Positions 44,601 through 47,600 of a stretch of 64,000 bases of DNA are shown here, piece after piece. Position numbers: made by a program. This DNA is from Escherichia coli. Its GTDB lineage: Bacteria > Pseudomonadota > Gammaproteobacteria > Enterobacterales > Enterobacteriaceae. The DNA lies in assembly GCF_030013205.1 (NCBI RefSeq), contig NZ_CP122648.1; one strand, given 5' to 3'. Each line of letters opens with the position of its first letter. The first letter of the stretch is position 1.

Positions 44601-47600
44601 GGCCTCAGTCATGCTTGTTTTTATGGCTAACAGCGAACCGGTTGATATGGTAACGGGTATTTATGACAGCAAGGAGGAATGCATTGCCGCAATGAAAGAA
44701 CAGAAAATTCCCGGTAACTGTTATCCGGTAGAAAAAATTATACACCAGAATTTTACTGAAACACCTGCCTCAAAATCCTGAGTGCGGTAATTCAAAAATC
44801 AGATTCTTTTTATATATGCCAGCAATGGCAGGGATTTGTTCACCATTAAATCTTTAATGAGGTTAAAACAAAATGAGTAAAGTCTTTATTTGCGCCGCCA
44901 TTCCGGACGAACAGGCAATAAAGGAAGAAGGGGCAGTTGCTGTAGCCACTGCCATTGAAGCCGGTGACGAACGCCGCGCCCGTGCCAAATTTACCTGGCA
45001 ATTCCTGGAGCAATATCCGGCTGCTCAGGACTGCGCTTATAAATTTCTTGTCTGCGAGGATAAACCCGGCATGCCCCGCCCTGCTATCGACTCCTGGGAT
45101 ACCGAGTATATGCAGGAAAACCGCTGGGATGAGGGATCGTCTTCCTTTGTCCCGGTCGAACCAGAGCCGAATACAGAAATTGTTAACTTTAATCAGTTAT
45201 CCGACGACAAACAGGCCGCTGTTCTCGTTAAGTTTGGCGCACATGAAAACGTCACCGTGGATATGGTCATCAACGCAAGCGGTCTTCTTGGCGATGACGA
45301 CATGATGACCTTTGACGGACACCTCGCAGAGGCAATTATCCGGACTAAAGAAATTAACGCCATGTATCCGGAACGTCAGATTGAATACATCAACGATGCC
45401 AGACGTGATTTAAAACCAACCGCCAAATGGCCCGACGTTCAGGCATATTTTCTCGACCGTAAAAAACGCCAGGAAAAGGAGCGCAAAGAAGGTGGTGCAT
45501 ATACTTCTGTTGTTGATCTCGCCCGCGCCAAAGTTAACCGGCAGAACACTGAAAACTCAGCAGGAAAAATCAACCCCACCACTGCAGCCATTCGTCGCGA
45601 ATACAAGCAGACATGGAAAACGCTGGATGAAGAACTGGCCTACGCTCTGTGGCCTGGCGATATTAATGCCGGAAACATTGACGGCAGCATCCATCGCTGG
45701 GCAAAAAATGAAGTTATCGACAAAGATCGCGAAGACTGGAAGCGCATTTCCGCATCAATGCGCAAACAACCCGATGCCGTTCGCTACGACCGTCAGACTA
45801 TTTTTGGCCTTGTCCGTGAGCGTCCGATCGACATTCACAAAGATCCCGTAGCACTGAACAAATACATCACTGAATACCTGACTACCAAGGGCGTGTTTGA
45901 AGATGACGAAGGAACAAATCAGGGCACAGCTGGTACTCTCCCGTCGCCAGTACCAGAAACTGATGCAGTGGAAACGGCAATGCCGGACAACGAAAAAACC
46001 GAATGCGAAGTGGAAGACGAACCATCTGTAGAGCGTGAGGGACCGTTCTACTTCCTTTTCACCGATAAGGACGGCGAAAAATACGGTCGCGCAAACAAAC
46101 TTTCTGGTCTGGAAAAAGCACTGGCCCTGGGAGCTACGGAAATCACAAAAGAGGAATACTTCGCACGTAAAAACGGCACGTACTCAGGTTCACAACAAAA
46201 TACTGGTGCATCTGACACGATCGCACAACCAGAGCCGGTAAAAGTTACCGCTGACGAAGTAAACAAAATTATGCAGGCAGCCAATATCAGCCAGCCTGAC
46301 GCCGATAAGTTGCTTGCTGTATCACGTGGTGAATTTGTTGCAGGGATTAGCGACCCGAATGATCCGAAATGGGTGAAGGGGATTGAAACCCGCGATTCAG
46401 TGAATCAGAACCAGCAAGAAACGGAACAGAACGACCAGAAAGCGGAAAAAGTCTGCACCGCCTGCGGTCAGACCGGCGGCGGCAACTGCCCTGATTGTGG
46501 TGCGGTGATGGGCAACGCAACATACCAGGAAACATTCGATGAAGAGAATCAGGTTGAAGTTCAGGAAAATGATCCGGAGGAAATGGAAGGCGCTGAACAT
46601 CCACACAAGGAGAATGCTGGCAGCGCTCAGGACCACGCCAGCGATAATGAAACTGGCGAGACGGCAGATCCCTTAATTGCGGTGAACGGTCATCACGTTA
46701 TCACATCCACCAGCAGAGTGTGGACTCACCTGTCGGTCGACCTTGAAACGATGGGAACAAATCCTGATGCACCAATCAACTCTATTGGCGGTAAATTCTT
46801 TGACCCGGCAACCGGAGAGATGGGGCCGGAATTCAGCAAAGCTATCGATCTGGAAACATCTGGCGGAATCATCGACCGGAAAACAATAAAGTGGTGGGCG
46901 AAGCGATCACGCGAAGCGCAATCTGCCATTTTTACCGATGAAATCCCGTTAGATGACGCTCTACTGCAATTACGGGAATTTATCAACGAAAACTCCGGCG
47001 AAAGCTTTGTCCAGATCTGGGGAAATGGAGCCAACTTCGACAATGTGATTTTACGCCGTTCATATGAACGGCAGGGGATCCCCTGCCCGTGGCGTTACTA
47101 CAACGATCGCGATGTGCGCACAATTGTTGAACTGGGAAATTCCATTGGCTTTGATGTCAGAATGGCTATTCCATTCGAAGGTGTACCCCACAATGCACTT
47201 GATGATGCACGTCACCAGGCAAAACAAGTTTCAGCAATCTGGCAAAAACTGATCCCGAGTCAGGCTGATTTTTAATGTTCAACCCCGGTCGTCGCCCACC
47301 AGCTATAGTGGCGGCGACCATGATTAGCGAACGACGCTCATGGCAAGACTTATTCTGCTCACTGAGTGGGCAAAAGAGGAATTCAGCGATCCGGTCCCTA
47401 CTCCAGGCACGTTAAGTAAATACGCTAAAGCCGGAATGATATTTCCTCTCCCCAAAAAAGTTGGAAGACACTGGCGAGTGGATCCGCGAGCTCGCTTTGT
47501 CGGAATGGTAAACAAGCCGGAGGTGATCGCCACAGATCACCCTGCTTTGAAGAGGATACTGGAAGATGGCGCGCCCGCGAAAATATAAAACCGATGTTCC

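Follow-up and report, generated by a model that had tools for sequence, protein, structure and literature searches.

We describe a complete, 800-residue member of the YdfE family of exonucleases, encoded by a Shiga toxin 2e (Stx2e) prophage of Escherichia coli. The gene lies at 44873-47275 (+) of a 64,000-nucleotide stretch of contig NZ_CP122648.1 (assembly GCF_030013205.1), and this whole analysed stretch is referred to below as the window. As judged from its sequence, the open reading frame (ORF) is an intact and probably functional member of a family carried by lambdoid prophages. Profile, alignment and structural model together identify its C-terminus as a genuine DEDDh fold whose active site is intact. 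Our overall reading, which we favor with modest confidence, is that the protein is a DEDDh exonuclease acting on the 3′ ends of DNA, from the phage or from the host, while the prophage is undergoing induction or replication, and that it does not carry out resection of the Red/RecET type. RefSeq, PHROGs and Pfam already cover the gene, the annotation as an exonuclease and the family, since an identical protein, an exonuclease annotation, a whole-length PHROG and dedicated Pfam families all exist. An intact copy is normal in E. coli, and the gene carries little weight as a discovery. However, most E. coli genes were characterized in K-12, which has a truncated copy only, and a protein whose full-length form occurs in about 60% of complete E. 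coli genomes has therefore gone without study in the literature searched.

The frame is single and uninterrupted from ATG to TAA in the ORF list, and a Shine-Dalgarno-like GAGG (44859-44862, +), read directly from the sequence, is located 10 nt 5′ of the ATG. With 800 codons and database homologues spanning its whole length, this is not a chance ORF. PHROG 2082 (“exonuclease”) matches the protein from end to end with 1536 bits, and an identical database protein (P0001) is present on 145 contigs. The ORF is matched at 100% DNA identity in E. coli K_EC180, where its product is annotated as WP_000048589.1, “exonuclease”. The window as a whole is 99.99% identical to the genome of this swine isolate (NZ_CP062203.1), which allowed the RefSeq annotation of K_EC180 to be transferred coordinate for coordinate.

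The DEDDh (DnaQ-fold) 3′-5′ exonuclease domain spans residues 618-790 (46724-47242, +) according to Pfam profile PF16473, a sequence alignment, an AlphaFold2 model and Foldseek comparison. PF16473 (Rv2179c-like) is the sole Pfam family found on the 800-residue protein at E ≤ 0.01, and its profile is covered completely (positions 1-177 of 177; 207.9 bits versus a cutoff of 27, E = 1.3e-61). Conservation of the catalytic residues was assessed in an alignment of 51 sequences that included T4 DexA. D623 (codon 46739-46741, +) and E625 (46745-46747) form the D-x-E of motif Exo I, are invariant, and correspond to D7 and E9 of DexA. In Exo II, D723 (47039-47041) lies within WGNGANFD, is likewise invariant, and corresponds to DexA D119. 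Exo III has the H-x4-D arrangement of the “h” subtype, with H773 (47189-47191) invariant and D778 (47204-47206) kept in at least 90% of the sequences; the DexA counterparts are H186 and D191. The AlphaFold2 model of residues 605-800 reached a predicted local distance difference test score (pLDDT) of 94.2 and a predicted template modeling score (pTM) of 0.88. Its best Foldseek matches in the PDB were T4 DexA structures 8KEN/8KEL (E ~ 1e-11, TM 0.70-0.73), followed by the DnaQ domain, RNase T, the oligoribonuclease Orn, REXO2 and Cap18, all with a probability of 1.00. A PDB sequence search with the whole protein returned T4 DexA alone, as a weak match (E = 6e-4). An initial annotation of this DNA had described acidic motifs in the C-terminus as compatible with a DEDD-type exonuclease, and the profile match, the catalytic residues and the predicted fold all agree with it. 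The predicted structure is that of an exonuclease, and neither the lack of such a fold nor homology limited to a structural protein was encountered.

Assignment to the YdfE family draws on homology, synteny and domain content. The YdfE fragment of K-12 is 69% identical in protein sequence to residues 1-257 (E = 5e-125). Precomputed Pfam matches for the identical protein P0001 comprise PF27430.1, PF16473 and PF27432.1, and PF27430 and PF27432, whose names were looked up as YdfE_N and YdfE_C, also occur on all close relatives. The order dicB - ydfD - ydfE - int is common to K-12 Qin, K_EC180, three other E. coli genomes and phage PPompW_EH1846. In K-12, dicB and ydfD are followed by a 768-nt “exonuclease” pseudogene without the C-terminus, an insertion sequence 2 (IS2) transposase remnant and a partial integrase gene. 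Thus, the initial annotation was correct in calling the protein YdfE-like, in giving its frame as intact over 800 codons, and in recalling that K-12 ydfE is truncated by an insertion sequence, as the pseudogene abuts the IS2 remnant. A literature search with “ydfE” returned incidental mentions only, and experimental work on full-length YdfE was not found; searches on Rv2179c in phage and on PF16473/DUF5051 likewise yielded nothing functional.

Upstream of the nuclease domain the protein has two further modules, a YdfE_N/YdfE_C scaffold (residues 1-435) and a linker (residues ~466-603). The scaffold consists of four folded blocks, with acidic, disordered linkers between them. Block 1 (residues 1-100; 44873-45172, +) is a small alpha/beta domain that begins the part homologous to K-12 YdfE. 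Block 2 (residues 105-206; 45185-45490, +) is helical in the AlphaFold2 model and is the most diverged segment of this allele. Block 3 (residues 245-340; 45605-45892, +) is also helical in the model, and weak homology to RecE begins within it, at residue 280, in a BLASTP comparison. Block 4 (residues 390-435; 46040-46177, +) is a small module, ER-GPFY...GRANK...EI..EEY.ARK, with near-invariant alignment columns and a pLDDT of 86-91. The linker (46268-46681, +) is of RecE type by BLASTP against RecE of the Rac prophage and ends in an acidic tail. It contains the motif RGEFVAGISDPNDPKW (residues 485-500; 46325-46372, +) and a putative zinc ribbon, C528-x2-C531-x7-C539-x2-C542 (46454-46498, +), which was read directly from the sequence and is kept in RecE and relatives. 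The Pfam DZR profile did not match this four-cysteine motif significantly (E = 0.09).

The resemblance to RecE raises the possibility that the protein is a RecE-type exodeoxyribonuclease VIII, which would resect double-strand ends 5′-3′ for an annealing protein. Residues 280-603 are 39% identical to Rac RecE, with near-identity over 466-603. The NCBIfam RecE model (NF007259) gives E = 5.5e-75, some sources use “exonuclease VIII” for relatives, and the position beside xis-int is that of recE-recT in Rac. However, the NCBIfam match reaches 253 bits versus a cutoff of 1269 and involves model positions 440-603 only, and the homology to RecE stops at residue 603, at the onset of RecE’s own PD-(D/E)XK nuclease domain. 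The N-terminal Exonuc_VIII domain PF06630 found no match in residues 1-609 even at E ≤ 1 (RecE itself gives E = 6e-98), and PF12684, the PD-(D/E)XK domain located at 615-850 in RecE, is absent from the 800-residue protein. Both the sub-threshold NCBIfam match and the occasional “exonuclease VIII” label are explained by the RecE-homologous linker. The catalytic domain present belongs to the class of opposite polarity, and the locus contains no recT, bet or erf, the neighbors being dicB, DUF1482, xis and int. Membership of the RecE family was rejected on domain content, and we regard this explanation as highly improbable. A RecET/Red-type role is unlikely more generally, because an enzyme of this polarity would not be suited to producing 3′ tails and because the locus is without an annealing protein or Gam. 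The initial annotation allowed for a recombination role; given 3′-5′ polarity of the DnaQ type and no annealing partner, a role in the RecE/Red style is not a direct consequence of the exonuclease assignment.

When 1.84 billion representative proteins were searched exhaustively, 10,799 relatives were found at E ≤ 0.001, and the longer of these reveal shuffling of the same modules. Some have the arrangement found in the window, a YdfE-type scaffold followed by a DEDDh domain. Another joins the scaffold to a PD-(D/E)XK (PDDEXK) domain (P0140), three join a RecE-type N-terminus to a DEDDh (Rv2179c-like) domain (P0123, P0139 and P0159), and five carry, on the scaffold, another C-terminal domain with the signature ...KKSLTDA.KKALS.LGFSADVWLGLYD (P0148, P0150, P0158, P0174 and P0218). 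This last domain scored 17.5 bits against Pfam Rad52_Rad22, just under the cutoff of 20.3, and a PDB profile search with it found no match. In the family of this domain, made up of standalone proteins of ~243 residues, 10 of 31 members reach Rad52_Rad22 (best E = 7.5e-8); on account of these matches the domain is probably a Rad52/Sak-like single-strand annealing protein. The gene for one such fusion, P0150, is flanked by a Gam-like gene and Sipho_Gp157 and lies upstream of xis-int (L036:5650-7986, on a Logan contig of SRR21701078). PHROGs labels the Rad52-like fusion family “exonuclease”, a label that looks carried over from the scaffold.

RecE, the DEDDh forms and P0150 all contain the motif RGE[FY]..GIS...W, and this part of the linker is kept across all these types. 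Scaffold and linker look, from their sequences, like a common platform for different DNA-end enzymes. In relatives this scaffold is fused to a nuclease of the RecE type or to an annealing protein resembling Rad52, and its function therefore probably lies in DNA-end or recombination biology. A broader idea, which we consider unlikely but worth stating, is that the YdfE/RecE scaffold and linker act as a general lambdoid-prophage “carrier” that would bring interchangeable DNA-end enzymes (DEDDh 3′-5′, PD-(D/E)XK 5′-3′ or Rad52-like) to one common target, with RGEFxxGIS...W and the zinc ribbon as the docking element. If this were true, the DEDDh version in most E. coli would be an uncharacterized one-protein DNA-end system and not a mislabeled RecE, and it would represent either a novel type of recombination function or an anti-phage nuclease targeted by its scaffold.

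For 3′-end processing by the window protein we propose the following sequence of events. Upon lifting of a DicA-type repressor, the gene would be transcribed together with dicB in an early-left-type string, as described for K-12 Qin. The C-terminal domain would then strip nucleotides from free 3′ ends by two-metal catalysis, in which D623, E625, D723 and D778 are predicted to bind Mg2+ and H773 to act as the general base. The substrate is most likely to be DNA, which T4 DexA, the closest relative with a solved structure, also degrades. The name of the Pfam family leaves RNA as a possible substrate, but DNA appears likelier, given that DexA and its E. coli homologue EcD, the solved and tested relatives closest to it, are DNA exonucleases. 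Scaffold and linker would probably oligomerize the enzyme or bring it to DNA ends or to a partner protein; we assign them this part because relatives carry a RecE-type 5′-3′ nuclease or a Rad52-like protein on the scaffold, in the slot of lambdoid recombination genes.

The main rival to 3′-end processing is anti-phage defense, in which the prophage nuclease would degrade 5-hydroxymethylcytosine (5hmC)-containing DNA of competing phages, in the manner of EcD, or the 3′ ends of RNA phages, in the manner of the “TONDO” exonucleases, with the scaffold sensing or targeting the invader. We consider it a possibility, albeit a doubtful one. Kang et al. (2025, PMC12153337) report that EcD, also named “HREX”, cuts the DNA of T4 while leaving unmodified DNA uncut, and that it confers protection against T4 on E. 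coli. In the same study, W152 and D169 of DexA are proposed to act in 5hmC recognition, and loss of the tetramer-forming Asp (D90 in DexA, Ala78 in EcD) is tied to dimer-only behavior. As a stand-in for EcD (HAK9828821.1) we used a 189-residue IMG/VR protein retrieved via the forward primer given in that paper; it has Ala78, its last residues differ from the reverse primer, and it represents a close variant rather than EcD. This 189-residue protein is 36% identical to the DEDDh domain in the window (E = 5e-36) and thereby closer to it than to DexA (27%). The DexA-like catalytic core is present, but the residues tied to 5hmC recognition and to dimer-only behavior are unmatched. Y743 stands at the position of DexA W152, with the same Tyr-for-Trp replacement in a direct alignment with the near-EcD protein, S757 stands at that of D169, although this placement is uncertain in an alignment only 24% identical, and D695 is retained at the position of D90. 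A PADLOC scan gave no match for the exonuclease, for which PADLOC contains no model. We do not class the protein as HREX, because Tyr743, Ser757 and the retained D695 depart from the reported pattern and because of the PADLOC result.

Other observations bear on defense in both directions. A 2026 preprint (PMC13344964) describes prophage-encoded, ISG20-like DEDDh exonucleases with auxiliary domains, the TONDOs, which defend against MS2 and Q-beta, both of them RNA phages. They were found with an ISG20 query and chosen from matches under 500 residues. TONDOs are ISG20-like, whereas the window protein matches no Pfam family other than PF16473 at the threshold given above. The product of the neighboring gene, DicB, has been reported to protect against phage infection, as cited in a passage of PMC8065619. 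Most E. coli genomes keep the gene intact, even where the prophage is defective, and it is under purifying selection. However, lysogens of K-12 keep the operon repressed, and this fits poorly with a constitutive defense.

The initial annotation had also suggested that the protein might serve in anti-defense. It would then be a phage enzyme destroying nucleic acids of host immunity, such as retron multicopy single-stranded DNA (msDNA), cyclic or linear oligonucleotide signals, or primers. Orn, REXO2 and Cap18, which are among the fold matches, act on short oligonucleotides. Phages often place counter-defense genes in early operons, and this gene sits in one. No specific pointer to such a role was seen in the sequence or the neighborhood, though, the closest relatives by structure and by sequence are DexA/EcD-type DNA exonucleases, and the literature search gave no support. 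We judge anti-defense improbable; the suggestion was left without support here, while defense has a published precedent in the homologue EcD.

Among 5,426 complete E. coli genomes, 4,799 contain DNA related to the gene, at a median of two places per matching genome, and in 3,264 genomes one place covers at least 80% of it. The initial annotation contrasted the intact frame with K-12; the frame is indeed intact, but this is less unusual than the contrast implies, as full-length copies are the E. coli norm and K-12 is the exception. In order to assess selection, the window allele was compared with three diverged 823-residue alleles, all with ompW synteny and with synonymous divergence (dS) of 0.3-0.9. 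The ratio of non-synonymous to synonymous divergence (dN/dS) was 0.11-0.14 for residues 1-100, 0.08-0.13 for residues 245-340, 0.04 for residues 390-435 and 0.17-0.18 for the nuclease (residues 618-800), and most folded domains are thus under purifying selection (0.04-0.18). Linker segments ranged from 0.36 to 1.75. Residues 101-206 gave 0.34-0.38 (dN 0.43, dS 1.1-1.3), and because this segment (residues ~101-206; 45185-45490, +) is far more diverged than the flanking blocks, its sequence suggests an intragenic mosaic patch. The window allele also has an in-frame deletion of 25 residues after residue 524 (46444/46445), in the disordered linker; these residues are present in common alleles.

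These data bear on a further explanation, namely that the gene is a silent passenger in this genome, of no use to the cell, its ORF intact only through the youth of a remnant prophage. Nearly all morphogenesis genes of the prophage are gone, with a partial small terminase and a partial tail fiber gene left. Broken copies of the exonuclease gene also occur, namely the IS2 truncation in K-12, an IS1 insertion in one genome and a frameshift in PPompW_EH1846, and loss is therefore tolerated in some lineages. On the other hand, most folded domains have dN/dS well under 1 between diverged alleles, near-full-length copies are kept in the 3,264 genomes noted above, and the catalytic residues are intact. 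We consider the passenger explanation quite unlikely and retain 3′-end processing as the preferred reading.

The host element is a defective lambdoid, Qin-like Stx2e prophage of ~22 kb inserted at ompW (window 26355-48696), with the exonuclease gene near the ompW end. A 126-bp partial duplicate of ompW (26355-26480) marks the far end, and ompW itself (48742-49380, -) adjoins the near one. The prophage retains stxB2e (30571-30834, -) and stxA2e (30847-31806, -), which encode the Shiga toxin type of pig edema disease, together with three tRNAs, a DNA methyltransferase, Q, RusA, DUF968, replication genes and an immunity region. The gene dicC (41889-42119, -) is divergent from a dicA-type repressor gene (42203-42610, +; Pfam HTH_3 and P22_Cro, RefSeq annotation), which heads a rightward, early-left-type string of dicA, DUF1391/ydfA, ydfB, a 186-residue ORF, a DicF-like small RNA (sRNA), dicB, DUF1482/ydfD-like, the exonuclease gene, xis and int. 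The cell-division inhibitor gene dicB (44399-44596, +; Pfam DicB, E = 3e-30, RefSeq annotation) and the small DUF1482 (ydfD-like) gene (44587-44781, +; Pfam DUF1482, E = 4e-19, annotation) directly precede the exonuclease gene. Within the gap between DUF1482 and the exonuclease gene, a promoter scan gave sites no more numerous than in shuffled sequence, and a terminator search found just a weak 5-bp hairpin. The exonuclease gene is the last cargo gene ahead of the 82-residue excisionase gene (47340-47588, +; Pfam Exc, E = 4e-7, annotation) and the gene for a 376-residue lambda-type tyrosine integrase (47566-48696, +; Pfam Arm-DNA-bind_1 and Phage_integrase, annotation), directly downstream as initially annotated. 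This early-left-operon layout places the gene in the same slot as recE-recT in Rac, and lambda keeps exo-bet-gam in its early-left operon.

Several other features of the prophage were observed. Between ydfB and the DicF-like region, the 186-residue ORF (43074-43634, +) matches several PHROGs of unknown function over its first ~60-100 residues only, which suggests an N-terminal module common to several PHROGs with a variable C-terminus. A minus-strand ORF at 43591-44160 (43591-43998 in K_EC180) lies within the rightward early operon at the position of K-12 ydfC; its product starts with CxxC...CPxH, received no Pfam, PHROG or PADLOC assignment in this analysis, and looks like an inserted “moron”. 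The divergent DicF-like sRNA (44160-44210, +), located upstream of dicB, matches the full length of the Rfam DicF model at 32.5 bits versus a gathering score of 48 (E = 7e-5). Its 3′ end is a hairpin followed by a T-run, a terminator scan also marks 44178-44205, and a below-threshold match to STnc100 (44222-44376) follows it. Between an IS481 transposase gene and the replication genes, a 319-residue SIR2-family protein is encoded at 38590-39549 (-); it has weak PADLOC matches (Aga_SIR2, E = 3.5e-6; PDC-S21; SIR2) and its gene is a possible prophage-borne defense gene. The hokD coding sequence (36961-37116, -) and an Rfam sok match (38220-38387, -; 109 bits) are parted by the IS481 transposase gene (37188-38261, +), and the IS481 insertion appears to have divided a hok/sok locus.

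Comparison with known systems places the protein among several relatives. With RecE of Rac it has in common the slot beside xis-int, a near-identical linker (RGEF..GIS..W, CxxC...CxxC and an acidic tail), and the layout of a long protein whose nuclease forms the last ~200-260 residues. RecE combines PF06630 with a PD-(D/E)XK 5′-3′ nuclease and a RecT partner, recT following recE in Rac, whereas the window protein combines a YdfE scaffold with a DEDDh 3′-5′ nuclease and has no annealing partner. Rv2179c of Mycobacterium tuberculosis, the founder of PF16473, belongs to the same family, as the full-profile match indicates; it stands alone as a protein, and in Pfam it is described as a 3′-5′ exoribonuclease. 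No solved Rv2179c chain was among the PDB sequence matches or the top 50 fold matches, and the relationship is therefore a distant one. T4 DexA (8KEL/8KEN) has the DnaQ-fold DEDDh domain in common, with catalytic residues that align one-to-one. Both DexA (227 residues) and EcD (~189 residues) are standalone enzymes, whereas here the domain is the C-terminus of an 800-residue protein. EcD has the DEDDh core in common, at the level of identity measured with its near variant, but the Trp and Asp reported for 5hmC recognition are Tyr743 and Ser757 here, and EcD lacks the Asp that the window protein retains as D695. The TONDOs of PMC13344964 are likened to it by description: each is a prophage-encoded DEDDh exonuclease with an auxiliary domain of unknown function, though the TONDOs are described as ISG20-like, probably a different DEDDh subfamily, and the window protein matched PF16473 only in Pfam. 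Family and locus type, dicB - ydfD/DUF1482 - ydfE - (xis) - int, are common to the protein and YdfE of K-12 Qin; K-12 YdfE comprises the first 256 codons followed by the IS2 remnant, whereas the copy in the window is complete, with linker, four-cysteine motif and exonuclease domain.

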